DNA of 64,000 nucleotides from an uncultured Candidatus Saccharibacteria bacterium (GCA_964620475.1 CAZUJN010000001.1:4651-68650), one strand, 5' to 3'. Positions 1,122 through 62,891 are shown, counted from the first letter of the stretch. Made by a program: numbers and translations. Notes: generated by a model from the letters alone, not told the origin.

Positions 1122-1241
1122 ATATTGATTTATGTTAAGTTTCTTTTAATTAGGCCAAGCATCTGCATAGGGTTTATGGCTTCAACTCTCGTTTAGCGCC
1201 ACCTATGGTATCCGAGACCGTGACATTACATTAACATTAAT
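1122..1241 (-). promoter_or_regulatory. Candidate rplJ (L10) leader / 5'-UTR region, relatively GC-rich 120-nt intergenic segment
   Basis: Intergenic segment upstream of rplJ is noticeably more GC-rich (ggccaagcatctgcatagggtttatggcttcaactctcgtttagcgccacctatggtatccgagaccgtg) than surrounding AT-rich DNA, consistent with a structured autoregulatory leader; not verified by folding. Confidence 0.3.
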
Positions 1242-3536
1242 CTAAGATTTTAGCAATAAGGTATAAAGATATAAATACTCCCCTCTTATGTATGTATATT
1301 TTCTTTTTATCAACTCATTTTCTATAACGCTCTTTAAATAAGATTTGATTTTATTTAAATTTTCATTATTTTCTATTTTTCTAATATATCTATCTTTTAT
1401 AGGCCTACTTATACTTGATAATTTAATCTCAGTAATGATGTCTTTTTTGGTTGTTGTAGAATTTATATCATAGAATTTTACAGTCTTACCGGATTCTAAA
1501 AAAGTTAAATCTAGAGTCTTATCATTATTTAATGTAATAGACTCTGAAATATTTTTATATACCGGTATATTTTCATATTTATGAGACATACTTGGATTTG
1601 AATTATTTTCTATAAACTCAACATCTATCAATTCATCTTTATTTGAATCTAATTTAAGACTATTAATATTTTTAGAAAATAAATATATCTGATTATCTAA
1701 GACTTCAAACCTAGAATTATTATCTGTCGATGTTTTTATGAAATCACTATTATCAATTGATAAAAAATCATTATCAGTCTTAATGGAAATATTTAAATTT
1801 ATAGAATCATATATTATCTTTATAAGATTGCTATGTACAGCATTAATAATACTATTGTAATTAAGTCCATTAAATATTCTAATGTCTCTTTGTTTTAATA
1901 TGTTATTAATATTTGATATTACATCTGGACTATTCATCATATTGGCGTGCAGATAATCTGTATTATTTAAATCTATATATGTAGTTGTTCCAAACCTAAA
2001 ACCTTTCATGTCCTGAACCGTTCCATCACCTTCTTTATTATACAGAGGTATATATTTATCATCTTGTTTTTTAATATCATATACAGTATCAACCCCATAG
2101 CCAACTATTTGATAAATAGATAAGTTTTCTGGATATATAAGATTGTCTATCTTTTCATGAAAATCTCTAGCCTTATTAAGTAAATAAGTATTTAACTCCG
2201 GATAAAACCAAGAATTTATTTTTTTATAGGATAAATATTTATCTGATGGTAATAATATATACGCTGTATACATATTAACACCCAACTTTTTTGCTATTTC
2301 AGATTTTAAAATAAGACCAGAAAGAATAGATTGACTATGTCCATACATCAATGATGTTATAGCTTGCGGTGTTCCATACTCAGGCATTGCAACAAAAATG
2401 ATGTTATCTATCATATATGATAGATTTTGTCTTTTTAACTCTGTAATAATATGTTTTGCTATTAAACCTCCGTTACTATGTGTGATTATAGTCACCTTTC
2501 CCGTTTTAGATGTTTTCGATAAAGATATTATCTGATCCACGAGATTTAACTCATCGGTTAATCTCCAATCATAAGGTATAATTTTATAGTCATTTATATA
2601 ATGATTAGTCTTTAATCTGTTTAAATAATCAATAAATTCTTTATGAAGACTTTTATCTATATATGGTATAGATAAAAAAATATTGGTTATATCTATAATA
2701 TCTTTGGTGTAAATATTATATAAACTATTTCCAAAATTATCTAAAAATAATTTTTTAACATCGGCATTTCTATTTGGTTCCCAAAGTTGATTATTATCTA
2801 AATAAAGCCTACTAGACATAATACCTGGTATAAACATGATATTCGAACAACAACTTTTATCTAATATGTTTGAGCTTGAAGAAAATGAATTTATTTTAAA
2901 ATTACCAGAGATTTTATTTATACCTTGGAAATAATTATTCTCAGCATTTGTCTTCATTGAATTTGAATTTATTGCAACTTCATTATATTCAAAATCATTG
3001 TAATTTATCTCTGCAAGTTTGGATGAATTAATATTTACAGCAGTATCATTATTTTTAAAAAAATTATTCTTTAAATAAATGTTTCGGGTACCAAAAAAAT
3101 ATAAAGCATCTTTGTAACCCTCTATTTGAGATGAGGACATAAAAAAATTTGTACCAGAATTTACAAAGAAAAACATATTCGAATTGTTATCTACACTTTT
3201 CAGATTTTCTATATCGACATCACTCATAGATGTAGATATATAATGATCAAGATCAAATTCTGCATGACGAATAGTCAAGGTTGATCTTTCTATATTTATC
3301 ATCTTATTCTGAACTCTATTATATGTACCATGTAACACCGAATTGTTTATTTTTAAACTTCCATTATAAATATTTAAACAACCATTATCAAAAACCACCT
3401 CAGTATTATTTATGGTTAAATTATCACCGTTTAGATTTATACATTCTTTAATTATTTGTTTTTGATCCCAAATAATATTTTTTGAATATACTGGTATGTG
3501 AAATATTATAAAAAATAATAATAAAAACTTTTTCAT
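1242..3536 (-). CDS. Secreted protein: signal peptide + N-terminal parallel beta-helix (Asn-rich PbH1-like repeats) + C-terminal alpha/beta-hydrolase lipase-like domain (ITHSNGG nucleophile-elbow motif, LCAT/PGAP1-like)
   Basis: 764 aa; MKKFLLLFFIIFHIPVYS signal; repeated N-x-N/F strands; GxSxG-type motif THSNGG with downstream Asp/His candidates. Confidence 0.55.
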   Translation of the reverse strand: MKKFLLLFFIIFHIPVYSKNIIWDQKQIIKECINLNGDNLTINNTEVVFDNGCLNIYNGSLKINNSVLHGTYNRVQNKMINIERSTLTIRHAEFDLDHYISTSMSDVDIENLKSVDNNSNMFFFVNSGTNFFMSSSQIEGYKDALYFFGTRNIYLKNNFFKNNDTAVNINSSKLAEINYNDFEYNEVAINSNSMKTNAENNYFQGINKISGNFKINSFSSSSNILDKSCCSNIMFIPGIMSSRLYLDNNQLWEPNRNADVKKLFLDNFGNSLYNIYTKDIIDITNIFLSIPYIDKSLHKEFIDYLNRLKTNHYINDYKIIPYDWRLTDELNLVDQIISLSKTSKTGKVTIITHSNGGLIAKHIITELKRQNLSYMIDNIIFVAMPEYGTPQAITSLMYGHSQSILSGLILKSEIAKKLGVNMYTAYILLPSDKYLSYKKINSWFYPELNTYLLNKARDFHEKIDNLIYPENLSIYQIVGYGVDTVYDIKKQDDKYIPLYNKEGDGTVQDMKGFRFGTTTYIDLNNTDYLHANMMNSPDVISNINNILKQRDIRIFNGLNYNSIINAVHSNLIKIIYDSINLNISIKTDNDFLSIDNSDFIKTSTDNNSRFEVLDNQIYLFSKNINSLKLDSNKDELIDVEFIENNSNPSMSHKYENIPVYKNISESITLNNDKTLDLTFLESGKTVKFYDINSTTTKKDIITEIKLSSISRPIKDRYIRKIENNENLNKIKSYLKSVIENELIKRKYTYIRGEYLYLYTLLLKS

Positions 3537-4232: not shown

Positions 4233-4973
4233 TTAGAACTCTTTACTTCTGACAATACTCATGGCAAAGCCACCTAATTCTCTTGCTAACACTCTCATAT
4301 ATGTACCGCTTTTACATTTAACCTTCAGATTCAAAATCAAAAAATTATCTTCATGAAGATTAAAAAAATTACTCCACGAATTTTTTATCTCATCTAATCT
4401 AAAATCACCATCCATCTCACAAGAATTTAATTTATCAAAAATTTTCTCTTTTATATTTTTATTTTCAATACTCAATAGCTCTATATCATATATATAACCG
4501 TTCTGTTTTTTATTCTCAAAATTATCACCCTCTAAAACTTTTTTAATATTAGGAGATGAATATTTTGGATAATCATATTCAAAAGGACCGACAAATTTAT
4601 CTAGAACACTTTTATCAAAAGTATCGACTTTTTTATAATCCTCTATTAAACCTAAAACATCATCTGTGTCTGTATTTACACCTAATACAAACTCTACCTG
4701 ATATTCTTTATCTAGATTCATTAAAACCTCTTTCTCTTTCATATCACCACTCCATAATAGATGTATATACCCTTCTGCCATAGGATCAAGCCTACCTGCA
4801 AATGTTATCTTGCTGGCAGATTCATTATCTAAGTATTGTTTAATTTCTTTCAAAACCTGAAGTGGGGTGAATCCAAGTCTCTTATATATCAAAATACAGG
4901 TTTCTGTAATAAACCTGTATTCTGTGTAAGTATGACCCGTCTCGGGTATATGATTATTTTGAAGCTTCTTCAA
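4233..4973 (-). CDS. truB: tRNA pseudouridine(55) synthase TruB-like
   Basis: GRLDPMAEG catalytic-Asp motif (cf. GTLDPLA), KRLGFTPLQVLKEIKQ N-terminal motif; start codon uncertain (possible later start). Confidence 0.7.
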   Translation of the reverse strand: MKKLQNNHIPETGHTYTEYRFITETCILIYKRLGFTPLQVLKEIKQYLDNESASKITFAGRLDPMAEGYIHLLWSGDMKEKEVLMNLDKEYQVEFVLGVNTDTDDVLGLIEDYKKVDTFDKSVLDKFVGPFEYDYPKYSSPNIKKVLEGDNFENKKQNGYIYDIELLSIENKNIKEKIFDKLNSCEMDGDFRLDEIKNSWSNFFNLHEDNFLILNLKVKCKSGTYMRVLARELGGFAMSIVRSKEF

Positions 4974-5400
4974 TCTCTTTTACAGCCTCCATATCTATAT
5001 CTTCTGGAGTATTATCTAATAAATCATTATCTGGAGCAGCTTTGTCAGGTCTAACCATTTGCATTTTTAGACGTTTGTTAATCTCTTTAACAGCTTTGTC
5101 TCTTATATAATATAGTTTTGCTCTTCTAACTTTTGATCTCTTTACAAGCTCTATCTTGTCTACAAGTGGTGAGTATAGTGGAAATATTCTTTCTACACCG
5201 TAACCATTTGCTGATTTTCTAACTGTTAAAGTAGCACCTGCCTCTGTTCCGTGTTTACGTGCAAGTATCATACCTTCAAAAACCTGTAATCTTGTCTTTC
5301 CTTTTTCTTGAATCTTTTGATGAACTCTTACAGTATCACCTGTTCTTAGATCAAGGTTTTTTCTTGAATTTTTGTCTACTGTCGATAATGTTATAGCCAT
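4954..5400 (-). CDS. rplS: 50S ribosomal protein L19 (with C-terminal acidic extension)
   Basis: VDKNSRKNLDLRTGDTVRVHQKIQEKGKTRLQVFEGMILARKHGTEAGATLTVRK is the L19 signature region. Confidence 0.9.
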   Translation of the reverse strand: MAITLSTVDKNSRKNLDLRTGDTVRVHQKIQEKGKTRLQVFEGMILARKHGTEAGATLTVRKSANGYGVERIFPLYSPLVDKIELVKRSKVRRAKLYYIRDKAVKEINKRLKMQMVRPDKAAPDNDLLDNTPEDIDMEAVKEIEEASK

Positions 5401-23558: not shown

Positions 23559-24725
23559 CTACACCTTAACACTCATAGCCACTTTCTTCATCACCCTTTT
23601 ATCAAAAGGTTTTGGTATAACGTAGTCTGCTTTTAATTCTTTTTTATTTATCAAACTTGCCAATGCATAAGCTGCCTTTATTTTCATATCATCAGTTATA
23701 CTTTTTACACCAGCATCAAGTGCGCCACGAAATATTCCAGGAAATACAAGCACGTTATTAATCTGATTTGGATAATCAGATCTACCTGTGGCAAATATTT
23801 TTATGTCTGCTTTTTTTGCATTTTCAAAACTTATTTCTGGATTTGGATTAGCCATAGCAAATACTATTCTATTTTCATTCATGGTTTTAACCCATTCTAC
23901 TTTCAAGACATCAGCCTTTGACACACCTATAAACACATCAGCGTTCTTCAAAGCATTTTCTAATCCTCCTTTTATATTTTCTTTATTTGTTATTTCAGCT
24001 AATTCTAATTTATATTTATTTAAATCAGTTCTATCTTTATTCAAAGTATCCACAGAATCTAAGACAATCATCTTATTTGGATTCACTCCAGCTTTTATTA
24101 AAAGTTTTGCTATAGCTAATGCTGCCGCCCCTGCCCCGTTTATAACTATTTTTATATTTTTCAAATCTTTCTTAACCAACTTGAGCGAGTTTATAAGCCC
24201 AGCTAAAACTACTATAGCTGTTCCATGCTGATCATCATGAAATACTGGTATATCGAGTTCTTTCTTTAATCTCTCTTCTATCTCAAAACATCTTGGAGCA
24301 GATATATCTTCTAGATTTATACCACCGAAGACCGGAGCTATGTTTTTTATAGTTTTAATTATTTCTTCTGTATCTTGTGTATTTAAACATATTGGAAATG
24401 CATCTATGTTTGCAAAATTTTTAAACAAAACAGCTTTACCTTCCATAACCGGTATAGCAGCTTCTGGACCAATATTTCCAAGTCCGAGCACCGCTGAACC
24501 GTCCGAGATCACCGCAACAGTGTTAGCTTTTATGGTATGAGTATATACAGACTTTTTATCTTGATGTATAAGACGACATACTTCTGCAACACCTGGAGTA
24601 TATGCTACCGATAAATCTTCTTTGTTTTTAGTCTTTACTTTTGAGACAACCTCAAGTTTACCTTTATGTTTTTTGTGTAGACCTAGGGATAATTTTTTGT
24701 AGTTTTTTGAAGATTTTGTGGGCAT
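23559..24725 (-). CDS. NAD(P)-dependent malic enzyme (short form)
   Basis: LSVAYTPGVAEVC, dinucleotide-binding VINGAGAAALAIAKLL, 388 aa. Confidence 0.85.
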   Translation of the reverse strand: MPTKSSKNYKKLSLGLHKKHKGKLEVVSKVKTKNKEDLSVAYTPGVAEVCRLIHQDKKSVYTHTIKANTVAVISDGSAVLGLGNIGPEAAIPVMEGKAVLFKNFANIDAFPICLNTQDTEEIIKTIKNIAPVFGGINLEDISAPRCFEIEERLKKELDIPVFHDDQHGTAIVVLAGLINSLKLVKKDLKNIKIVINGAGAAALAIAKLLIKAGVNPNKMIVLDSVDTLNKDRTDLNKYKLELAEITNKENIKGGLENALKNADVFIGVSKADVLKVEWVKTMNENRIVFAMANPNPEISFENAKKADIKIFATGRSDYPNQINNVLVFPGIFRGALDAGVKSITDDMKIKAAYALASLINKKELKADYVIPKPFDKRVMKKVAMSVKV

Positions 24726-25507: not shown

Positions 25508-27775
25508 ATGCTTCAAAAACCCCTTACAGACATTATCAAAAACATAAGTACAGCTCATAAAATAGCCTTGTCTAGACTGGGCATAAAAACTGTATCTGAT
25601 ATTCTATACCACTTCCCAACTCGCTATGGCGATGCTTTTAAAGCCACATACATCAAAGATATTATTCCGGACACAAACGTGGTTCTATATGGTGAGATCT
25701 ACAACATAGATTCTCAAAAGAGTTTTAAGACAAAAGTTTTAATGGTAAATGCAACACTTCGCGATGATACTGGTTCCATAAAACTAACTTGGTTCAATCA
25801 GATATATATAAGTAAAATGTTTAAGGACGGAGATATTGTAAAAATATCAGGCATAGCCAAAGAACAAGGTAAACAAAAAGTTATAGTAAACCCTCTCATA
25901 GAAAAAACCAAAGCAGACCCCATAGCACAAGGTACAAATCTTTTTGGTCAAAAAGAAGAAATATTATTTCAACCAATATATAAAGAAACAAAAAGTATTA
26001 CTTCAAAATATATTCATTCATTAATACAAAAAATATTTACACATCCTGATTTTAAAGACATAAAAGATAATATTCCAGAATCAGTCTTGAAAAAATATTC
26101 TCTACCAAACCTACATGATGCTTTGATCTATATACATACACCAAAAAAAGATCAACATGTTGAAGCAGCTAAAAAAAGATTTGCCTTTGAAGAAGTATTT
26201 TATATACAACTTCAAAATGCAAAAAGAAAAAAAGAAGCTTCCGAAGCCTTATCATATTCTTTTGTTGGTTTAGAAAATGCTTTAAAAGATTTTAAATCAC
26301 ATATACCCTTCACTCTTACTGATTCACAAGAAAATGCCATAAATTCTATATTGAATGATTTTAAAAGAACTCATCCTATGAGTAGACTTGTTGAGGGTGA
26401 TGTAGGTTCTGGTAAAACCGCAATAGCTGCTGCTGCGGCCTATGCTATAGTTGCCTCACGTGTAAACAGTATGAGATCACAGGATCAAAAGAACTCTCGT
26501 TTACAAGTTGCATATATGGCACCTACCGAGATACTCGCCAAACAACATTATGAATCATTTACACAGATGTTTGCCAAATTACCTATAAATATAGGACTAT
26601 TAACAGGATCAGGTTGTAAAAAATTCCCCTCAAAATCTTCTCTATTAACACAAAAACAAGGCACCGATATATCTAAGACTCAACTTTTAAAATGGATAGC
26701 ATCGGGCGATATATCTATAGTCATAGGTACTCATGCACTTATACAAAAGTCTGTAGTATTTCGTGATCTCGCTTTTGTTATCATCGATGAGCAACATCGC
26801 TTCGGTACAAAACAAAGACAAAAACTTGCAAACAAACATATAGCTGACGAAGAGATAAAAAGTAAACTTAAGAAAAAAGACACTTTGAGAATAAATAAAA
26901 AAGCATATATAGATAATAAACTCGATGAACCTAAAGAGAAAATAATACAAACACCACATCTTTTATCGATGACCGCCACTCCTATTCCCCGCACCCTGGC
27001 TTTAACACTTTATGGTGACCTTGATCTATCTGTTGTTGATCAAATGCCATCAGGCCGTAAACCAATAATCACAGAAATAATTTCCGAAGATAAAAGAAAT
27101 GAAATGTATGAAAAAGTTCATAAAGAACTTGAAGCAGGTAGACAAGCTTATGTTATCTGTGCTCGTATAGAAGACCCTGATCCAGATCTTATGAGTAAGT
27201 TAAATATCAAATCAGTCAAAGAAGAGGCCGATAGATTATCTCGTGAACATTTTAAAAAATATAAAATTGCTACACTTCATGGAAAAATGAAAACTGCAGA
27301 GAAAGATAAAGTGATGAAAGATTTTCTTGATAAGAAAATAGATATACTTGTAGCCACTTCTGTTATAGAGGTTGGTGTGAATGTTCCAAATTCAACAACT
27401 ATCATTATAGAAGGAGCAGATAGATTTGGACTCTCACAAATACATCAGTTACGTGGTCGTGTTATCAGAGGTACACATCAAGCTTATTGTTATTTATGTA
27501 CCAACAACGCCAGTGAAAAAACCATGGACAGATTAAAGGCTTTGAAAAATGCTAAAAACGGATTTGAGTTGGCGGAACTTGATCTGAAACTACGTGGTGC
27601 TGGAGAGTTATATGGTGATAAACAATGGGGTTTAAGTGATATAGGTATGGAAGCCATAAAGAATATAAAGATGGTTGAAGCAGCCAGAGAAACCGCAAAG
27701 GAGTTAGTTGATGAAGGATTGACACCTGAGTTGACAAAACTACTGGAGGAAAATGAAAAGGTTCATATGGAGTAA
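25508..27775 (+). CDS. recG: ATP-dependent DNA helicase RecG
   Basis: N-terminal wedge domain (LGIKTVSDILYHFPTRYGD), Walker A GDVGSGKT, DEQHRFG, helicase motifs through QLRGRVIRG. Confidence 0.9.
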   Translation: MLQKPLTDIIKNISTAHKIALSRLGIKTVSDILYHFPTRYGDAFKATYIKDIIPDTNVVLYGEIYNIDSQKSFKTKVLMVNATLRDDTGSIKLTWFNQIYISKMFKDGDIVKISGIAKEQGKQKVIVNPLIEKTKADPIAQGTNLFGQKEEILFQPIYKETKSITSKYIHSLIQKIFTHPDFKDIKDNIPESVLKKYSLPNLHDALIYIHTPKKDQHVEAAKKRFAFEEVFYIQLQNAKRKKEASEALSYSFVGLENALKDFKSHIPFTLTDSQENAINSILNDFKRTHPMSRLVEGDVGSGKTAIAAAAAYAIVASRVNSMRSQDQKNSRLQVAYMAPTEILAKQHYESFTQMFAKLPINIGLLTGSGCKKFPSKSSLLTQKQGTDISKTQLLKWIASGDISIVIGTHALIQKSVVFRDLAFVIIDEQHRFGTKQRQKLANKHIADEEIKSKLKKKDTLRINKKAYIDNKLDEPKEKIIQTPHLLSMTATPIPRTLALTLYGDLDLSVVDQMPSGRKPIITEIISEDKRNEMYEKVHKELEAGRQAYVICARIEDPDPDLMSKLNIKSVKEEADRLSREHFKKYKIATLHGKMKTAEKDKVMKDFLDKKIDILVATSVIEVGVNVPNSTTIIIEGADRFGLSQIHQLRGRVIRGTHQAYCYLCTNNASEKTMDRLKALKNAKNGFELAELDLKLRGAGELYGDKQWGLSDIGMEAIKNIKMVEAARETAKELVDEGLTPELTKLLEENEKVHME

Positions 27776-27805: not shown

Positions 27806-27881
27806 TGGTGCAAGCACTAGGATTCGAACCTAGGACCGGTCGTGTATAAGACGACTGCTCTACCAACTGAGCTATGCTTGC
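27806..27881 (-). tRNA. tRNA with anticodon UAU as read (tRNA-Ile2-type), CCA encoded
   Basis: Reverse complement GCAAGCATAGCTCAGTTGGTAGAGCA-GTCGT-CTTATAC-ACGAC-CGGTC-CTAGGTTCGAATCCTAG-TGCTTGCACCA; 76 nt. Confidence 0.65.
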
Positions 27882-28331: not shown

Positions 28332-30194
28332 TTATTTTTCTATATTTATCCCAAACCCTTTAACAATCTCCTCATACTCCGCCTGCTCTAAAGTCTCCTT
28401 CTCCATCAATGCGGCAGATATAGCATCTAGACAAGGACGATTTGTATTTATTATATCTTGAACTCTTTGATAAGCTTCATTCATTATTTTTGAAACCTCA
28501 TTGTCTATAAACTCATTTGTTTTTTCACTATAATTTTTAGATTCTACATTATTTCCAAACATTGCTCGGCCGCCGGCAGGCTCTAATGCTATAGGGCCAA
28601 CAGCATCACTCATGCCATATTTTGTTACCATGTCCCTGGCCAAAGCAGAGGCAACCTGAAGATCATTTGATGAACCTGTTGTAAGATCACCATATATAGT
28701 TTTCTCAACAACATAACCACCAAGTGACACAGCTATATCATCCAAGAATTCTAATTTTGATTGCATCTTCTTATCTTCGTTTGGAAGTTTTAGGGTGTAA
28801 CCTGCAGCACGACCACGAGATATAACAGATACTTTGTGTACAGGATCAGCATATGGAAGTATAGATGCAACTATAGCGTGCCCTGCTTCATGATAAGCGG
28901 TAAGTTCTTTTTCTTTTTTACTCATAACATGGGTTTGACGAACTGGACCCAACATAACTTTTTCTATAGACACAATAAGATCATTTTGCAATATCTCTTT
29001 TCTGTTATGACGTGCTGCCATGATAGCAGCCTCATTCATAATAGAGTGAAGATCGGCACCAGAAAAACCAGGTGTTCTCTCAGCCACAGTTTCAAGCCTA
29101 ACCTCTTTTGAAAGAGGCTTATTCTTTGCGTGAACTTTAAGTATCTCAAGTCTATCTTTTCTGTCTGGTAATTCAACATTTACCCTTCTATCAAAACGTC
29201 CAGGACGTAGAAGCGCAGGATCCAGAACATCTGGTCTGTTTGTAGCAGCCATGATTATTACGGAATCACTTGGCTCAAAACCATCCATCTCTACAAGTAT
29301 CTGATTAAGTGTTTGTTCTCTCTCATCATTACCACCACCCATACCAACACCACGTACACGTCCAACAGCATCGATCTCATCTATGAAAATGATCGCAGGT
29401 TGAGCTGCACGAGCAACTTTAAACATATCTCTAACACGTGAAGCACCAACACCAACGAACAGCTCCACAAACTCAGAACCAGATATAGAAAAGAAAGAAA
29501 CGTTTGCCTCCCCTGCCACAGCTCTCGCTAACAAAGTTTTACCTGTACCTGGAGCACCCATCAAAAGTATTCCACGAGGTATACGAGCACCTATTGATAA
29601 AAACTTTTTAGGATTTTTTAAAAAATCAACAACCTCTTCAAGTTCATGTTTTGCCTCTTTAACACCAGCAACGTCTTTAAAAGTAATCTTTTGTTTTTGG
29701 CCATCAGGATGCATAAGTCTAGCTTTTGAAGAACCAAAAGAGAAAGCTTGTCCACCAGCACCTTTCATACCACGAGATAAAAACCATATTATAAACACAA
29801 ATAATAATATAGGAAACAAAAACGGCAACAGACTAGCTGCTATATAACCTGCACTTCTATCGTCTTTTATTTCTATATTTGTTAAAGCAAGTTTGGTTTT
29901 ATCAACACCAAGATTTGAAAGTGTTTCGGTTAAAGATGATTGTGCTTCTTTTTTAGAAAATTTTACAGTTTCATCTTTATAGGTAACCTCTATTTTATCA
30001 TTAATGTTTTTGATATTAGAAACTTTCTCTAAATTTATATCATTTACCAATTCTGTTAAAGTTATATTTTTGTTTTCTGTGCTACCTTTATTTAAGTAAT
30101 CACTTATAGCAAATATTAATAAGAAAAATATTATTATTCCAAATATATTCTTTAATAAAATTGTTTTGAATCCACTCTTTTTTACTTTTACCAT
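28332..30194 (-). CDS. ftsH: ATP-dependent zinc metalloprotease FtsH
   Basis: AAA+ Walker [12 protein letters not shown] region, HEAGHAIV zinc-binding motif, N-terminal TM helices. Confidence 0.95.
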
Positions 30195-30238
30195 AAACTG
30201 ATATTAACATTATTTTATGGTATTATCTATATAAATAT

Positions 30239-31357
30239 ATGGCTATAATACAGAACAAAAAGGCTTATCATAACTATGAAATACTTGAAAAGATAGAGAC
30301 AGGTATGATTCTTTTAGGTTTTGAAGTTAAGGCTATAAGATCAGGTCAAATGACATTAGATGGTTCATACATAAAGATAGGTAAACATGACAGAGTTTTT
30401 TTGATAGGTGCCAATATAAAACCATTACAACAAGAAAATATTCCTGATTCATATTCGGAAACAAGAGATAGAGAATTACTGTTGACAAAAAAAGAAATAA
30501 AGCACCTAAAACAAAAGACTGAGACAATTGGTAATACTTTGATACCAATTTCCGTATATAATAAAGAGGGTTTGATAAAACTCGAGATAGCTCTCGCTCG
30601 TGGTAAGAAAAAACATGATAAAAGAGAAAGTATTAAAAAAAGAGAGGCCAACATAGAAATAAACAGAATGTTACATCACAAATCAAAATTCATATTTTTA
30701 CTATTAATATCAAGCCTGTTTGGTCTTTCAAACACAGTTGATGCAAAAGTATTATTAAAAGTTCCTTATTATCAACAACAATACACAAACAGTTGTGAAG
30801 CCGCTGCTACAAAAATGGTATTAGAATATCATGGTATTTATCTAGATGAAGATGAGATATTAAAATCTTTCAACTATAATCCCAGACAAAAAGATACAAC
30901 AAATAATGTATGGGATGATCCAAATGAAATGTTTGTTGGTTTTGTTGATAAAAAAGGACCAGAAAATGGATATGGTGTTTATGGCCCGGCGGTGGTTAAA
31001 GGTATAAAAAAGTTTGAGGTAGATGCAACACATCATGCAAGCTCAAGTATAAACCTGAAACTTATTGCACAAAGTATAAAAGATGATAAACCAGTTATAT
31101 TCTGGGGTTATACTTCCCTAACACAAAAACCATACACATGGAAAACAGAATCCGGTAAAACCATTAAGGCTTTTAGAGGTGAGCATGCACGTGTGGTGGT
31201 TGGTTTTGAAGGTACAGTAAATAACCCAACAGGATTTTATGTACATGACCCCATAAACGGTAAGAAAAACGAGTATTGGTCTAAAAATAAACTATTAACA
31301 AACCTGACTGCGGTACCAGATGTTACTGATCAATTGGTTATAATAGATTCAGATTAA
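30239..31357 (+). CDS. smpB: SsrA-binding protein SmpB (aa 1-~145) continuing in-frame, with no stop, into a signal-peptide/TM segment plus C39-like cysteine peptidase (Peptidase_C39_2/YvpB-like) domain; either a fusion or two genes (second start at ATG ~30665)
   Basis: N-terminus IIQNKKAYHNYEILEKIETGMILLGFEVKAIRSG is canonical SmpB; downstream MLHHKSKFIFLLLISSLFGLSNTVDA looks like a signal peptide; YYQQQYTNSCEAAATKMVLEYHG is a C39-like catalytic Cys motif. Confidence 0.75.
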   Translation: MAIIQNKKAYHNYEILEKIETGMILLGFEVKAIRSGQMTLDGSYIKIGKHDRVFLIGANIKPLQQENIPDSYSETRDRELLLTKKEIKHLKQKTETIGNTLIPISVYNKEGLIKLEIALARGKKKHDKRESIKKREANIEINRMLHHKSKFIFLLLISSLFGLSNTVDAKVLLKVPYYQQQYTNSCEAAATKMVLEYHGIYLDEDEILKSFNYNPRQKDTTNNVWDDPNEMFVGFVDKKGPENGYGVYGPAVVKGIKKFEVDATHHASSSINLKLIAQSIKDDKPVIFWGYTSLTQKPYTWKTESGKTIKAFRGEHARVVVGFEGTVNNPTGFYVHDPINGKKNEYWSKNKLLTNLTAVPDVTDQLVIIDSD

Positions 31358-31404: not shown

Positions 31405-31791
31405 GGGGATGACCGGATTCGATATATAGAACTTTGACATGTATGCGTAATAGAGTATTCTCAAATCTCTTAAAACTTTGAGGAACCTTAAGTGCACAAG
31501 CACAAAAAGCTGTTGTATCGCCTTTCGCGTTCAACATGTCTTTCGCAACTGCTAGAGCATAACCTCTAGTCGCGCATCTTACTTTTATCTACTTTGTGTA
31601 AAAGATAGGGTGTAATATAGCAAAGTTGGATTAAGGTAGTAATCTTGATCCTTAATCGAGATAAAAGATTATATTATATGATGTTTCGATATATATTTTG
31701 AGTCATATAATGAATTTTAAAAATATATCTATATTACGTAGAGTTACATGTTTAAACTATATAGACGTGGGTTCGACTCCCACCATCTCCA
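31405..31791 (+). ncRNA. ssrA: tmRNA (ssrA), ~387 nt, immediately downstream of smpB
   Basis: 5' end GGGGATGACCGGATTCGA (cf. GGGGcTGAttctGGATTCGAC) and 3' tRNA-like end GTGGGTTCGACTCCCACCATCTCCACA pairing with the 5' GGGGATG to form the acceptor stem; candidate tag frame ...AFNMSFATARA-stop ending at 31562. Confidence 0.75.
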
Positions 31792-31796
31792 CATCA

Positions 31797-31830
31797 ACAA
31801 AAACCACCCTCGCAGGTGGTTTTTTGTTTA
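31797..31830 (+). terminator. Terminator after tmRNA (aaaaccaccctcgcaggtggtttttt)
   Basis: ccacc/ggtgg stem + T-run. Confidence 0.6.
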
Positions 31831-31832
31831 GA

Positions 31833-34800
31833 TTATTTTTCTTTTACATCTGGATTAACACGACAGATTATCGAGGTTGTTATCGGAGAAGGAACCAAAT
31901 TTGTTCCAGAACATTTTAATGTATACTTCTGATTTGTTGTTAAACCTGAAACAGTTTTACTTCCACCGCTGGCACCATCAGTAAGTGTTATTGGATAAAC
32001 AGTTGAATCACCTCCGCCAATATTTATATTCCAACCACTAAGATTACATGATGATCCTGAAGGGATGTTTGATATATCCCATGATATTGTACAGTTACCA
32101 TTTTTATTTAATGAAACTTTAGGGTCTTTAGATAGATTAATAACAGGAGGATTAACAACTGTATTATTACACTGAGGTGAAGTGTCCCCTGGCTGACAAC
32201 CTGTTACTGTTGTTGGAGTATATGAACATGTTTTAGAAACAATTTTTCCATCATATAAATCCTTAAGTTCAACAGTCATTGAATCACTTGTTGTTGGTAA
32301 TGCTTTTGTATATACATATGAACCATCTTTGTTTGTGGTTGCAACAAGTGTACCATCTTTCCTGTATTCAACATTACCCAACGTTGTTTTTCTGTCTGGT
32401 GTAAATGTATATGTTAGATTTGTATCACTTGAAGACATAACACAATATGCATTAAAAGCACAAGCAGGATCATTTGTAACTTTATTTACCTGAACACCAT
32501 TTTCTTTATAGACCATATCTCTACCTACACAAGAATTAGTTTTAGTCACCGTTGGGGGTGTACAGGTTGTTCCATCAAAATATCCCATCCAATCACCTGT
32601 TGGGTCTGAACATGTACCAATTGGTTTACATGTTTTACCTGCATCCATAAGATTCTTAAAGAAAGGTGCTATATTTCTGTATTTACCACCATCACTACCA
32701 CTAGGTATATTATATCGAGCTGCTGTAGGTGTGTAAGTACTATCATATCCATCTGAATCAATTTTTGACTGAAACTCAATCTGATAAGGTGAAATACCTT
32801 CCCCATCTAATTTGTACACACTCCAATCACTATTATTAGAAACAGTTGTGGGTTTAACAAGCTCAGGATCATAACAGGTTGCCTCATCAGTCAAACCAGC
32901 TTCTATTATCTTATAAGTTGATGTCCAGCTTTTAGTATCATCACCTCTATTATCTAATCTAAATGTTATAGTACAATTACCATCATATTTCATACCAGGA
33001 ACGTTTTCTTTTTTACCGCCATATCTATAAAGGTTTTTAGAAGCATATTCAGGTGTTAAACCACTTATATCACCATATATTCTATTATCCGGCTGACCAA
33101 ACATAAATCTAAATATTGGATATCTAATCATCTTCCATGAACCAAGTTGTTCAGCTACAACATAAAATCTTTTATTTTCTGTTATAGATGGTCTAGTATC
33201 AGATGTATAGCCAAGATATTTACATATATTTATACTTTTATCATGCCAAGCAGCCCTGTCTGTACCATCTATATTATAAAGAGGAGAAAAAACCTTAGAA
33301 CCAGCTATAAAAGTATTCCTAAGCTCTCCATCAGTACAAAAACTTCTGTCTAAGATAGAATCAACATTACTCTCAAAAACATCTCTTGTTGTAGCAACAG
33401 AACGACACACATCAGAAGACATCTTTCCAGCTTCTACTATTTTTAGATAAACTCTATCATAATCAGTGTCATCTCCTTGATATTTTGTATAAACAGTAAC
33501 ATTACATCCCCCATTATATGTCGCATAATTAACATTTCTCTTTCTTCCACCCGGGTCAAAAGTTATTGTTTTAGATTCATTTTTAACAAATCTATATATA
33601 TGAAATCTCTTATATGTCCAACCAGATCTACCAGAATCAGATATAACATAAAACGGTGATCCGTTGTCTATGGTACCAGCTATTGTTGAACATATATTTA
33701 TACTTGCACTTATAGGCCCACCTGTACTACCTGTACCAGGAGCAGTTATATCAACGACTTCACCAGAAGAAAAATATTTTTTTGCTCTAACATCTTCAAC
33801 AGTACAAGCGTCTCTCAAGAATCTATTACATGCCCATTTCTTAACAAACCACTCATTTGTAGCCGAATCTTCTATACACTCATTGGTTGGTTTAGTGCCA
33901 CACACCTCAACATCAGTAAGAGCTTTAACAGAATGAGCTCCAACAAAAGCAACCGAGGACATCAATAATATCATTAACATCATCAATGATTTTTGTTTTT
34001 TCTTTTTAAAAACCATAAACACTATTATTAGTAATAATATCAATACGGACAGGATCATATAATATATTTTATTTGAATTTACATGTGTAATGTTAACAGT
34101 TTTTGTTTTTGTTAAAATAATACTTCCGTCTTTATCAAGTATATCAACCTTTACCAAGACTTCACCGACCATATTTTTCAACACCTCAACTCTTTCATTC
34201 ACATTTATTGTACCTTCTTTATAAAAAGTTTTATCTATTTCCTTTTTAAAAATCTCTTTTTCATATTGAGAAACAGAAATAACAACTTTATTATTTTCTT
34301 CTTTTTCTAATTTTGATTCATATCCAATATTTGCATAAACATCTAAATCCTCAACCAATATTTGTGTATCAGTAAAATTATAAGCTGAATTAGATAATAT
34401 AAATTTATAATCAACAGATATCTTTGGATAATTAGTTGATGTTATTTTTAATCTATATTCTCCACCATTTATATTCAAAGGCACCTTAATATTCAACACG
34501 TTTTTGGTGAAAGAAACCGCTTTAAAAAAGTTTTTATTTTTTTCTAGATATTTATCAAACTCATCTGGTTGTTTTTGAGGATTTGGGGCCTTTGTCTTAG
34601 GACTAGATGCTGACCAAACGGTGTTATTTTGGACATCAAACACTTCTATATTCAACTCTGGCTCAACCACTTCATAATCAACCCCATCCTGAGCTATTAA
34701 TTTTACAAAAAGATTTGACCCTTTTATTAAATTTAATTTTTCATTAAAAGTAGTAAAGGAATCAGAACTTATTTCCATGTTATCAGTAGAGTACACAACA

Positions 34801-34877
34801 GACTCTTCTGCTTTAATGATTTTATTACCAATAAAAAAACTTAACAATAAAATCAAAAATAAAATATTTTTTTTCAT
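31833..34877 (-). CDS. Large (1014 aa) secreted/surface protein: signal peptide, ~240-aa domain, TM/second signal-like segment (~aa 275-320), then long Cys-rich Thr/Asn/Gly-rich extracellular region
   Basis: MKKNILFLILLLSFFIGNKIIKA signal; hydrophobic YYMILSVLILLLIIVFMVF-KKKKQKS-LMMLMILLMSSVAFVGAHS; many Cys in C-terminal 700 aa. Confidence 0.5.
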   Translation of the reverse strand: MKKNILFLILLLSFFIGNKIIKAEESVVYSTDNMEISSDSFTTFNEKLNLIKGSNLFVKLIAQDGVDYEVVEPELNIEVFDVQNNTVWSASSPKTKAPNPQKQPDEFDKYLEKNKNFFKAVSFTKNVLNIKVPLNINGGEYRLKITSTNYPKISVDYKFILSNSAYNFTDTQILVEDLDVYANIGYESKLEKEENNKVVISVSQYEKEIFKKEIDKTFYKEGTINVNERVEVLKNMVGEVLVKVDILDKDGSIILTKTKTVNITHVNSNKIYYMILSVLILLLIIVFMVFKKKKQKSLMMLMILLMSSVAFVGAHSVKALTDVEVCGTKPTNECIEDSATNEWFVKKWACNRFLRDACTVEDVRAKKYFSSGEVVDITAPGTGSTGGPISASINICSTIAGTIDNGSPFYVISDSGRSGWTYKRFHIYRFVKNESKTITFDPGGRKRNVNYATYNGGCNVTVYTKYQGDDTDYDRVYLKIVEAGKMSSDVCRSVATTRDVFESNVDSILDRSFCTDGELRNTFIAGSKVFSPLYNIDGTDRAAWHDKSINICKYLGYTSDTRPSITENKRFYVVAEQLGSWKMIRYPIFRFMFGQPDNRIYGDISGLTPEYASKNLYRYGGKKENVPGMKYDGNCTITFRLDNRGDDTKSWTSTYKIIEAGLTDEATCYDPELVKPTTVSNNSDWSVYKLDGEGISPYQIEFQSKIDSDGYDSTYTPTAARYNIPSGSDGGKYRNIAPFFKNLMDAGKTCKPIGTCSDPTGDWMGYFDGTTCTPPTVTKTNSCVGRDMVYKENGVQVNKVTNDPACAFNAYCVMSSSDTNLTYTFTPDRKTTLGNVEYRKDGTLVATTNKDGSYVYTKALPTTSDSMTVELKDLYDGKIVSKTCSYTPTTVTGCQPGDTSPQCNNTVVNPPVINLSKDPKVSLNKNGNCTISWDISNIPSGSSCNLSGWNINIGGGDSTVYPITLTDGASGGSKTVSGLTTNQKYTLKCSGTNLVPSPITTSIICRVNPDVKEK

Positions 34878-52633: not shown

Positions 52634-53635
52634 TTATTTGTTTGTGTCTATGATATACAATATGTCTTTTGATTGTAGTATTGAGTTTTGGTTTTTTATT
52701 TTTATAGAAAGTTTAGATAATTCATCATCCTTCTTTTTTCTAAAAGATAACTCATTTGATGAATTTTTTATTTGTACATCATTTATATACCAACTATATA
52801 TTGTTGCTAAAGTTGAGTTTATTCCATAATAGAATGGATATGATACTATGGTTGCTTCGTTTTTACTTAATCTAAATTGAGGCTTGATTGTTTTGTTGAA
52901 TAATATTCCTAATAAAGGACTTTTTTCATAACTAATAATTTCTGTATCTAATGTTGGTATTCTTAATATAGCCTCATTGTTGTATGTTTTTGTTACAGTA
53001 TCTTTGTATGAATTTAATGCTGAAACAACCACACTAAATAAAGGCTCTTTTTTTAAGATATCACCTTTGTATGAAAAAGATGAATAACCAGCACCCGAAA
53101 CACTTCCTTTAACAACACCATCAACGCTCCACTTATAATTATTATATGTGTTTGTTAAAGGATTTTCTTGATCAAGGTTTATGGCATTTAGAATAATAGA
53201 TGATTCTGGTGTATACATTGATTTTCCTTTATAAAAAGGTGGTGTATAAGTTCTTGATTCCCATATTAATATAATTTTTTTAGGATCAAATACGAATTGT
53301 TTTTGTATTTTTGAACCATAATTTGTTGTAATCTCTAAATCAACCGTACTTTTTTTATCCAACACAAAATTTATTTTATTTAAACCCACACCAGATTTAA
53401 ATGATTTGTTGTTGATTTTCCAATCAAAAGCGGAATCAGAAATATTTGTACCATACATTTCTGCTGATATTGTGATTGTGTCACCTATGTTTGGTCTTTC
53501 TGGGTAAATATTAAAATATGTTTTCTCTTCTAATTCTGAAAAGTTTTCGGGCCCTGTTGCAGCATATGTATTTGAGGTTAAAAAATAGAAAAAAACTATT
53601 ATAAATATAAGTATAGATTTATAATTTAAATTCAT
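52634..53635 (-). CDS. Secreted hypothetical protein of the T4SS-like locus
   Basis: 333 aa; signal peptide SILIFIIVFFYFLTSNTYA; beta-rich. Confidence 0.4.
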   Translation of the reverse strand: MNLNYKSILIFIIVFFYFLTSNTYAATGPENFSELEEKTYFNIYPERPNIGDTITISAEMYGTNISDSAFDWKINNKSFKSGVGLNKINFVLDKKSTVDLEITTNYGSKIQKQFVFDPKKIILIWESRTYTPPFYKGKSMYTPESSIILNAINLDQENPLTNTYNNYKWSVDGVVKGSVSGAGYSSFSYKGDILKKEPLFSVVVSALNSYKDTVTKTYNNEAILRIPTLDTEIISYEKSPLLGILFNKTIKPQFRLSKNEATIVSYPFYYGINSTLATIYSWYINDVQIKNSSNELSFRKKKDDELSKLSIKIKNQNSILQSKDILYIIDTNK

Positions 53636-62057: not shown

Positions 62058-62891
62058 TTATTCTATTTTTATGGTTTCATTATTTATGTTATTGTTAGTC
62101 CAAATCATCCCAGGATCATCTGCTGTGTAACTTACTTTATTAAGTATAATTGTTTTTCGGATTTTTTCAAAACCGTTTGTTAATTCAGTGGTAGCTGTTT
62201 GTAAACTGTTTATTCCTAAGAGAGCTCTTGCTGGGTCAGAGTTTTGATACTCTAATAGAGACATGCCTTCTGAATATTTTATATATCCGTTCACAATCAA
62301 TAAATGATTTTCAGCCAATATGTCTGGCACGACAACAGTTTTTAAGACATCTGCCGCGCCCCTATATGCCGCAGCCACATAAGGTGTTTTATCTTTTTTT
62401 GTGTTGATATTTGATATGACCTTAGTTAAGGCATCTTGAACTATAGCCAGGTTTGTACCATATATTTTTAAATTTTCTACACTAGATGATGTTGTTTTTA
62501 TCTGATTTATTGTTATTGTGTTGGCCGATTGAATCTTATTTTTCAATAAATCATTAGTCATTTTCGCTATCTCGTCGGTTTTTATCTCGCCAGAGGTATT
62601 GTATTTTATGTATTGTGTAAAAACATCCTTAGATAGACTATCAGTCAGATTATCGCTACTGTTTTTTTGAAAAGATTTTGAAAATTTTTGAAAGTTTTTG
62701 ATGTTTTCTTCTGTCACTGTTGCTAATATGTTTTCTTGATATCTATCTGCTTTAGTTACAATCTTTCCGTTTTCATCAACAACTATGTTGTCGGAGAATT
62801 TGTCTATTAATTTATCTTTTTGGGTAATCGAAAAAACTATTATAAGAAGAAAAACGCAAACCGCTGCTATGTTTAAAGTATGCTTATTCAT
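62058..62891 (-). CDS. Membrane-anchored/secreted hypothetical protein (first gene of T4SS-like locus)
   Basis: 277 aa; N-terminal hydrophobic LNIAAVCVFLLIIVFSI. Confidence 0.4.
   Translation of the reverse strand: MNKHTLNIAAVCVFLLIIVFSITQKDKLIDKFSDNIVVDENGKIVTKADRYQENILATVTEENIKNFQKFSKSFQKNSSDNLTDSLSKDVFTQYIKYNTSGEIKTDEIAKMTNDLLKNKIQSANTITINQIKTTSSSVENLKIYGTNLAIVQDALTKVISNINTKKDKTPYVAAAYRGAADVLKTVVVPDILAENHLLIVNGYIKYSEGMSLLEYQNSDPARALLGINSLQTATTELTNGFEKIRKTIILNKVSYTADDPGMIWTNNNINNETIKIE

Follow-up and report, generated by a model that had tools for sequence, protein, structure and literature searches.

How does a cell use a single reading frame that begins with a ribosome-rescue factor of the cytoplasm and ends with an enzyme that appears to be exported? 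The question is raised by the smpB gene of an uncultured Candidatus Saccharibacteria bacterium, which is found in a stretch of 64,000 nucleotides (nt) (GCA_964620475.1 CAZUJN010000001.1:4651-68650), termed here, at its full length, the window. SmpB acts inside the cell and normally requires that the end of its tail be free. In the window no stop codon follows this tail, and the frame runs on through a signal-peptide-like segment into a C39-like cysteine peptidase domain. A preliminary description made from the sequence alone had pointed to this read-through, and it is borne out: there is one open reading frame of 372 codons, from ATG to TAA and without an in-frame stop, with a predicted precursor of 42.4 kDa. 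A comparison of related loci indicates that this is a genuine in-frame gene fusion, retained in evolution in one clade of Patescibacteria. With respect to its product, the reading favored here, which is given a probability of about one half, is that the precursor made from the smpB start would be exported and cut by signal peptidase I between A169 and K170, and that the processed SmpB would be active. This reading draws on general knowledge of the Sec pathway.

The open reading frame has three parts: SmpB (amino acid (aa) positions 2–147), the signal-peptide-like segment (M144–A169), and a papain-fold peptidase of the C39_2/YvpB-like type (aa positions 170–372). Their positions in the window are listed below; related loci are designated by L numbers and proteins by P numbers.

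30239..31357, + strand: SmpB-signal peptide-C39_2-like peptidase open reading frame; same frame in L005, L006, L041, L002, L003 and L004
30239..30688, + strand: SmpB moiety, aa 1–150; Pfam and NCBIfam equivalog matches
30668..30670, + strand: internal in-frame ATG, Met144; homologous to the peptidase ATG of L001
30668..30745, + strand: signal-peptide-like segment, M144–A169; hydrophobicity and n-h-c layout by inspection
30746..31354, + strand: mature peptidase, aa 170–372, predicted 23.0 kDa; PF13529, AlphaFold2 (AF2) and Foldseek

The chance of a 229-codon stop-free run after SmpB is about 4e-8, as calculated from base composition; stop-free runs of at least 229 codons number 33 of 8319 in the window.

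Two protein families in one retained frame

The first half displays a match to Pfam SmpB (PF01668) at aa positions 3–146 (5e-46), to the NCBIfam equivalog NF003843 (160.9 bits, cut-off 130) and to TIGR00086 (score 148.8, cut-off 119.1). The NF003843 match covers model positions 12–155 of 156 and reaches residue 147. Thus the SmpB part is complete including its tail, and the preliminary description was right to place a whole SmpB domain before the junction. The basic C-terminal tail, GKKKHDKRESIKKREANIEINRMLHHKSK, is present. It reads G122-KKKHDKR-ESIKKREANIEINRMLHHKSK150 and carries the KGKK and (H/F/Y)DKR motifs, the definition of which as conserved SmpB tail motifs is taken from PMC4151336. 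In our own tail alignment aa positions 144–150 occupy the place of the ancestral VFKR ending, and the last residue of E. coli SmpB falls at about K150, immediately before the hydrophobic h-region of the signal-peptide-like segment. There is no free C-terminus, as 222 more codons follow the tail; stand-alone relatives are 146–150 aa long. This continuation past the tail is the one exception; every other sequence test assigns the first half to the SmpB family. The AF2 model of this half is uninformative (predicted local distance difference test (pLDDT) < 50) because the alignment contained few SmpB sequences.

The second half shows a match to PF13529 (Peptidase_C39_2) at aa positions 173–338 (4e-20, 73–75 bits with a cut-off of 24), which spans model positions 1–142 of 143. 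The catalytic-Cys motif that had been noticed earlier, QQYTNSCEAAATKMVL, is confirmed, with the Cys at residue 186. The candidate catalytic residues are Gln180 (30776), Cys186 (30794), His316 (31184) and Asp337 (31247), and all four are invariant in 14 homologues and in the fused orthologues. AF2 gives pLDDT > 90 over aa positions 170–370. The best Foldseek match is 3ERV (target TM 0.82, E-value = 1e-12), followed by staphopains and the C39 domains of PCAT/ComA, and a profile search also matches 3ERV (3e-20). 3ERV is a putative C39-like peptidase of Bacillus anthracis that shares with the window peptidase the Pfam match, the Gln/Cys/His/Asp residues and the papain fold. A search of the literature on YvpB function found no characterized substrate for the Peptidase_C39_2/YvpB family.

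All of the peptidase homologues (14 compared) bear an N-terminal signal peptide or membrane anchor, which suggests that the peptidase domain works outside the cytoplasm. In the window open reading frame, by contrast, the signal peptide is internal and stands behind a whole SmpB. The window peptidase also differs from its YvpB-like/C39_2 relatives in having no linker or accessory Big_5 domain.

Assignment to the classical C39 bacteriocin-processing peptidases was considered and rejected. PF03412 gives 21.4–22.3 bits with a cut-off of 22 and covers model positions 2–41 of 133 only. The double-glycine C39 type that is fused to an ABC transporter was also rejected, as the open reading frame ends after the peptidase domain and has no ABC transporter domain. 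The second half is best described as a member of Peptidase_C39_2, and not as a classical C39 peptidase linked to an ABC transporter.

The same in-frame junction is found at seven loci in separate assemblies (the window, L005, L006, L041, L002, L003 and L004), with 68%–100% aa identity. At 90% identity the window protein falls in a cluster of six sequences, which come from NCBI, ENA and Logan assemblies and are all 372 aa long. L005 and L006 are representatives of two other GTDB species (95%–100% identity), and identity to the window is 91% for L041, 76% for L002 and 74% for L003. L004 is a poor contig with diverging ends and is usable at the junction only. Pairwise ratios of nonsynonymous to synonymous substitution (dN/dS) are 0.06–0.15 for the SmpB part and 0.06–0.16 for the mature peptidase, with dS about 1 or more, i.e. 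saturated synonymous sites, between the window, L002, L003 and L001. The low ratios together with this depth of divergence point to long retention of both halves by selection while fused.

All loci used here derive from metagenome assemblies, and L004 in particular is of poor quality, thus one may ask if the fused frame is an assembly or sequencing error, or the mark of an smpB gene that is dying in this lineage. An error is difficult to reconcile with seven loci of separate assemblies that differ by about 25% in aa sequence and yet keep one frame, and the sequencing error that had been suspected in the preliminary description can be set aside on this basis. Decay of smpB is at odds with the dN/dS of the SmpB part, with an intact hidden Markov model (HMM) score at the equivalog level and with the conservation of the transfer-messenger RNA (tmRNA). 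Neither artefact nor decay is a credible explanation in our estimation. The other suggestion made at the time, that of a real fusion, is upheld at the DNA level by the seven loci and by purifying selection on both halves.

Among the best 150 matches from 1.84 billion representatives, no SmpB+C39_2 fusion was found beyond this cluster. One protein, P0152 (317 aa), has an SmpB sequence (aa positions 4–145) that is joined without a stop to RecR (HhH, zinc-finger and Toprim domains). As in the window, smpB reads through in frame to its neighbor; however, the partner is cytoplasmic, and P0152 is a single cluster representative and may be an error. In the literature on SmpB in Patescibacteria and on SmpB fusions no paper on an SmpB fusion was found, and the literature on leaderless Patescibacteria and on bacterial internal signal peptides or polyproteins yielded nothing directly relevant. 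What is new at this locus is a lineage-specific fusion of unusual topology, which links a ribosome-rescue factor of the cytoplasm to an exported enzyme exactly at an end that is normally free and functionally critical; both halves are of known families.

The junction and its possible products

The segment at the junction shows the layout of a signal peptide, with an n-region MLHHKSK, an h-region FIFLLLISSLFGL of 13 aa (aa positions 151–163) and a c-region SNTVDA. A signal peptidase I site is predicted by inspection between A169 and K170, and the folded peptidase domain begins at position +1 of this site. The h-region is the only strongly hydrophobic stretch of the protein (maximum KD11 value of 2.8 at aa position 156). 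The n-h-c layout is kept in fused orthologues, and in six of six fused sequences aligned (window, L041, L006, L002, L003 and L004) there is Ala at −1 and V, L, T or A at −3. A cut after A169 would give a peptidase whose N-terminal peptide begins KVLLKVPYYQQQYTNSCEAAATK; an example of a peptide that spans the junction after the SmpB tail is SKFIFLLLISSLFGLSNTVDAK. When translation begins at the smpB start the segment is internal (aa positions 144–169), and it is N-terminal only with a start at Met144.

The segment might also remain uncut and serve as a type II signal anchor. SmpB would then face the cytoplasm and the peptidase the exterior, and ribosome rescue would be tethered to the membrane. 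AF2 gives one continuous helix (aa positions 130–160) across the SmpB tail and the h-region, as such a bifunctional membrane protein might have, and the conserved neighbor ftsH encodes a membrane protease. The h-region, however, at 12–13 residues, has the length found in signal peptides and not that of a membrane span, and the conserved −1/−3 site stands just before the folded domain. In addition, a tail kept at the membrane is unlikely to reach into the 30S mRNA channel (PMC4151336). We consider an uncleaved membrane protein to be improbable.

Start signals were compared between 51 long open reading frames of the window and 310 internal in-frame ATGs. Shine-Dalgarno-like 4-mers are found before 4% of starts and 8% of internal ATGs. 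A TAnnnT −10 box (at least 5 of 6 positions) is present 5–9 nt upstream of 35% of starts as compared with 4% of internal ATGs, and a perfect TATAAT is present at 22% as compared with 0%. The starts look like those of leaderless mRNAs in a one-promoter-per-gene architecture. TATAAT at 6–8 nt upstream of the ATG is very common (e.g. 23559..24725 −, 25508..27775 +, 52634..53635 −, 62058..62891 −), and the −10 boxes are often contained in the 3′-terminal part of the gene before. Other starts form a second class, with an A-rich, G-poor sequence upstream. The stop codons of the 51 open reading frames are TAA (36), TAG (13) and TGA (2), with a GC content of 31.6%.

The internal ATG reported in the preliminary description is present, but its position is 30668 (codon 144) and not about 30665. 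An independent ribosome-binding site for the peptidase gene, which that description had also brought up, did not materialize: neither a Shine-Dalgarno motif nor a promoter was found at this ATG by −10 scoring and a consensus scan. Its −10 score is 4 of 6 (TAGAAA) in the window and in L003, and 3.5 in L002 and L004; 35% of internal ATGs also score 4 of 6, and the L001 peptidase ATG is similar. Thus the peptidase appears to have no recognizable promoter or ribosome-binding site of its own, but only an A-rich context. The 18 nt upstream of 30668 are 67% A and 11% G, an A content that is equalled ahead of 16% of starts and of 2.9% of the internal ATGs. No fused lineage lacks a Met near the junction; its codon is number 144 or, in L002 and L004, 142. 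The internal ATG is a possible secondary start.

These properties bear on a reading of the locus as two nested genes. The peptidase would be made mainly from Met144 as an ordinary pre-protein, and the full-length product would be either the SmpB of the cell or a tolerated by-product whose C-terminal part is not productively exported. The A-rich upstream sequence and the Met that persists in all fused lineages, although repositioned in two of them, fit this reading, as does the apparent descent of Met144 from the start codon of the peptidase gene (see below); the homologous ATG starts the peptidase in L001. But the ATG is without a −10 box at leaderless spacing, its TAGAAA being no better than that of many internal ATGs, and without a Shine-Dalgarno motif, and the Lys/Arg/Glu/Asn-rich SmpB tail encodes an A-rich context regardless of any start. 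Furthermore, read-through from the smpB start makes the precursor anyway, and with a functional-looking signal peptide. Nested genes, with Met144 used as an additional or as the main start, are the main rival explanation, though on balance we think a less probable one.

The SmpB tail also contains a run of seven A residues (30634–30640) in the KKRE codons. A frameshift or transcriptional slippage on this run could let most ribosomes end with an SmpB of normal length, and a TAG in the +1 frame does follow a few codons on in the window, L002 and L003, with the L001 stop slightly further. However, the conserved KKRE..NIE codons in themselves account for both the A run and the off-frame TAG, which are present in unfused relatives too, and off-frame stops are ubiquitous at this GC content. 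In the +1 product some 12 residues would be missing from the end of the tail, an element that is essential in E. coli. The −1 products are not conserved (the window product ends in ...KHS and that of L003 in KKRG), and a comparison of the window, L002 and L003 showed no conserved alternative-frame product at the run. Recoding is considered very improbable.

Ribosomes that begin at the smpB start meet no stop before 31355, thus they must make the 42.4-kDa precursor. In the reading that we prefer, i.e. export and cleavage of this precursor, the basic tail of SmpB would run into the signal peptide of the peptidase and double as its positively charged n-region. On emerging, the hydrophobic stretch (aa positions 151–163) would engage the Sec machinery in the manner of an internal signal, translocation of the peptidase domain would follow, and a cut by signal peptidase I at the predicted site would give the 23.0-kDa extracytoplasmic peptidase. 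A 19.4-kDa SmpB with a signal-peptide remnant of 19 residues would stay on the cytoplasmic side and, as it is or after trimming, would support trans-translation with the adjacent tmRNA. Because SmpB and the tmRNA are both under selection, the processed form would have to be active. The retained internal ATG may provide a further share of the peptidase.

Several points weigh against this sequence of events. The SmpB C-terminal tail must be helical in the empty mRNA channel, and its truncation or mutation abolishes function (PMC4151336). A hydrophobic extension of 19 residues, or a membrane tether, might interfere with the tail. The Met that is retained in all fused lineages in spite of its shift from codon 144 to 142 in L002 and L004, and the 18 upstream nt, whose A content exceeds that found before 97% of internal ATGs, hint that independent initiation matters. 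To our knowledge there is no precedent for cleavage by a bacterial signal peptidase behind a folded cytoplasmic domain of 143 residues, and none was found in the literature on bacterial internal signal peptides and polyproteins.

Origin of the fusion and neighboring genes

Stand-alone SmpB proteins with 63%–79% identity to the window SmpB were found by a search with the SmpB part alone. They are 146–147 aa long and end in ...IEIQRVFKR or ...REIGRIFKR. Stand-alone SmpBs (NF003843/TIGR00086; E. coli SmpB; the 147-aa proteins P0181 and P0183–P0201) share with the window SmpB the full-length HMM match and the basic tail with GKKxHDKR, and stand-alone smpB also shares with it the adjacency of ssrA and ftsH and strong purifying selection. 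The window SmpB differs in that VFKR is replaced by the signal-peptide n-region, with 222 residues to follow. At the two stand-alone loci that have downstream sequence, L046 and L048, the order is ftsH (−), smpB and the tmRNA gene (43 nt after the stop in L046 and 54 nt in L048), with no peptidase between. More distant peptidase homologues (at most 56% identity) have no smpB within 4 kb at any of 33 loci. A widespread pairing of smpB and peptidase genes was rejected on these grounds.

The peptidases of the fused loci are monophyletic (100% bootstrap). This single clade, the stand-alone neighbors that lack the peptidase and the distant peptidases that lack smpB together argue for a single insertion between smpB and ssrA. 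As a test of a single origin, the SmpB tree (143 aa) gives only 3% bootstrap for monophyly of the fused loci plus L001 and 52% for a wider clade that includes P0181 and P0183; it is too short to place these two stand-alone proteins with respect to the fused group.

The junction of L003 reads ...ANIEIKR followed by MINKTKFIF..., thus SmpB ends four residues before its ancestral end and is followed by an apparently complete N-terminus of a pre-peptidase. The L001 peptidase as called begins MQNKIKF. These two sequences suggest that Met144 is the original start codon of the peptidase gene. The basic n-region of the peptidase (MLHHKSK, MINKTK) stands in the place of the SmpB terminal VFKR. We conclude that a single insertion brought a peptidase gene, complete with Met and signal peptide, to the 3′ end of smpB, at the expense of the last four smpB codons and the stop codon. 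The lost stop codon proposed in the preliminary description is a correct description in the evolutionary sense, as stand-alone relatives end in ...RVFKR after 147 aa.

A stop codon after SmpB in an orthologue, which the preliminary description had recommended looking for, does occur at L001 (ENA ERZ4198739 NODE_18344). Here smpB (150 aa) shares 11 nt (ATGCAAAATAA) with the peptidase gene, which is read in another frame. The genes, their order and the flanks (ftsH, tmRNA) are the same as in the window, and the peptidase ATG is homologous to Met144. In the DNA alignment the L001 junction is a 3n+1 indel, i.e. one extra A (AGAATG to AGAAATG) and an in-frame 12-nt repeat, and deletion of one A restores a continuous fused open reading frame of 371 aa. 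In both trees L001 branches within the fused group (81% and 87% bootstrap), and its contig coverage is 3.2x. The nesting, the single extra A and the low coverage together indicate that L001 is a secondary split or an assembly error; it was rejected as the ancestral two-gene state. The stop is there, but it does not mark an original boundary between two genes.

The fused open reading frame is flanked by the following features.

28332..30194, − strand: ftsH, divergent, 44 nt from the smpB start; neighbor kept in fused and unfused relatives
30198..30226, + strand: promoter-like site for smpB, CTGATA, 17-nt spacer, TGg-TATTAT; consensus scan alone
31405..31792, + strand: tmRNA gene ssrA; ARAGORN, Rfam RF00023 (105 bits)
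31799..31824, + strand: intrinsic-terminator-like hairpin and T-run that closes the smpB-peptidase-ssrA block; sequence scan

The promoter-like site would leave a very short 5′ leader, or none, before the ATG at 30239, and this fits the leaderless signature seen throughout the window. Divergent ftsH is also found beside smpB in L001, L003, L040, L046 and L048. ssrA begins 47 nt past the stop of the open reading frame, thus it does follow directly, as had been stated in the preliminary description, and its tag reading frame is intact. The downstream position of ssrA is kept in L001, L002, L003, L005 and L048.

The tmRNA tag reading frame (31494..31562) encodes 22 aa, AQAQKAVVSPFAFNMSFATARA. The tag is unusually long, with the pattern A[QK]AQKAV[VA]SPFAFNMSFATARA, and is near-invariant across the window, L001, L002, L003 and L048. 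It ends in ARA, as opposed to the common LAA. At the stand-alone locus L046 (SmpB P0181) the tmRNA gene (1157..1368) has only 212 nt (48.5 bits) and no tag-coding region, and a second copy of the tmRNA 3′ end is found at ~1505..1552, about 150 nt downstream. This could be a deletion, or a scar left at ssrA by the insertion of a mobile element, and it would bring into question an intact trans-translation system at that locus.

L005, from a strain near-identical to that of the window (98%–100% aa identity), has an additional open reading frame of 202 aa (4701..5309) that resembles S-adenosylmethionine (SAM) methyltransferases between the fused open reading frame and the tmRNA gene, where the window has 47 nt. 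Beyond ssrA, positions 31833..34877 (−) of the window encode a Cys-rich open reading frame of 1014 aa that begins with a signal peptide and has a further hydrophobic segment in its interior; L005 shares this frame, and a search of Pfam gave no match for it. On the other side lies a tRNA-Ile with the anticodon UAU (27806..27881, −), also present in L003 (3262..3337); the usual type is the lysidine-modified CAU.

Meaning for SmpB and for protein export

An extension of the cleavage reading is that SmpB acts as a giant cytoplasmic n-region of a cleavable signal peptide. The locus would then encode a bacterial cellular polyprotein that is split by signal peptidase I, and SmpB synthesis would be coupled both stoichiometrically and spatially to export of the peptidase. 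This proposal is tentative and may well not hold. If true, SmpB would be synthesized right at the membrane, beside FtsH and the translocon. In flavivirus polyproteins and in the Rem signal peptide of mouse mammary tumor virus (MMTV), signal peptidase splits one product into a part on the cytoplasmic side and a lumenal or exported part. The likeness to the window is limited to the proposed mode of action, as those are eukaryotic viral systems, and we know of no bacterial cellular example that has a housekeeping translation factor as its N-terminal part. With respect to the peptidase, it is a speculation, by analogy with Tsp/Prc in E. coli, that the enzyme may be the extracytoplasmic protease for proteins with the unusual 22-residue tmRNA tag of this lineage.

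The free basic C-terminal tail is the key functional element of SmpB, with which it probes the empty mRNA channel. The SmpB of the window is a naturally occurring one that is clearly under purifying selection, and its tail continues into a hydrophobic signal peptide and a predicted exported enzyme. The scope is narrow, as the fusion belongs to a single small clade of uncultured Patescibacteria. Should the fused SmpB be functional, then either its tail tolerates large extensions, or bacteria use signal peptidase to part a cytoplasmic protein from a secreted protein of the same chain. Such a split, if true, would be one route to shared gene expression in a leaderless genome that is free of Shine-Dalgarno signals.

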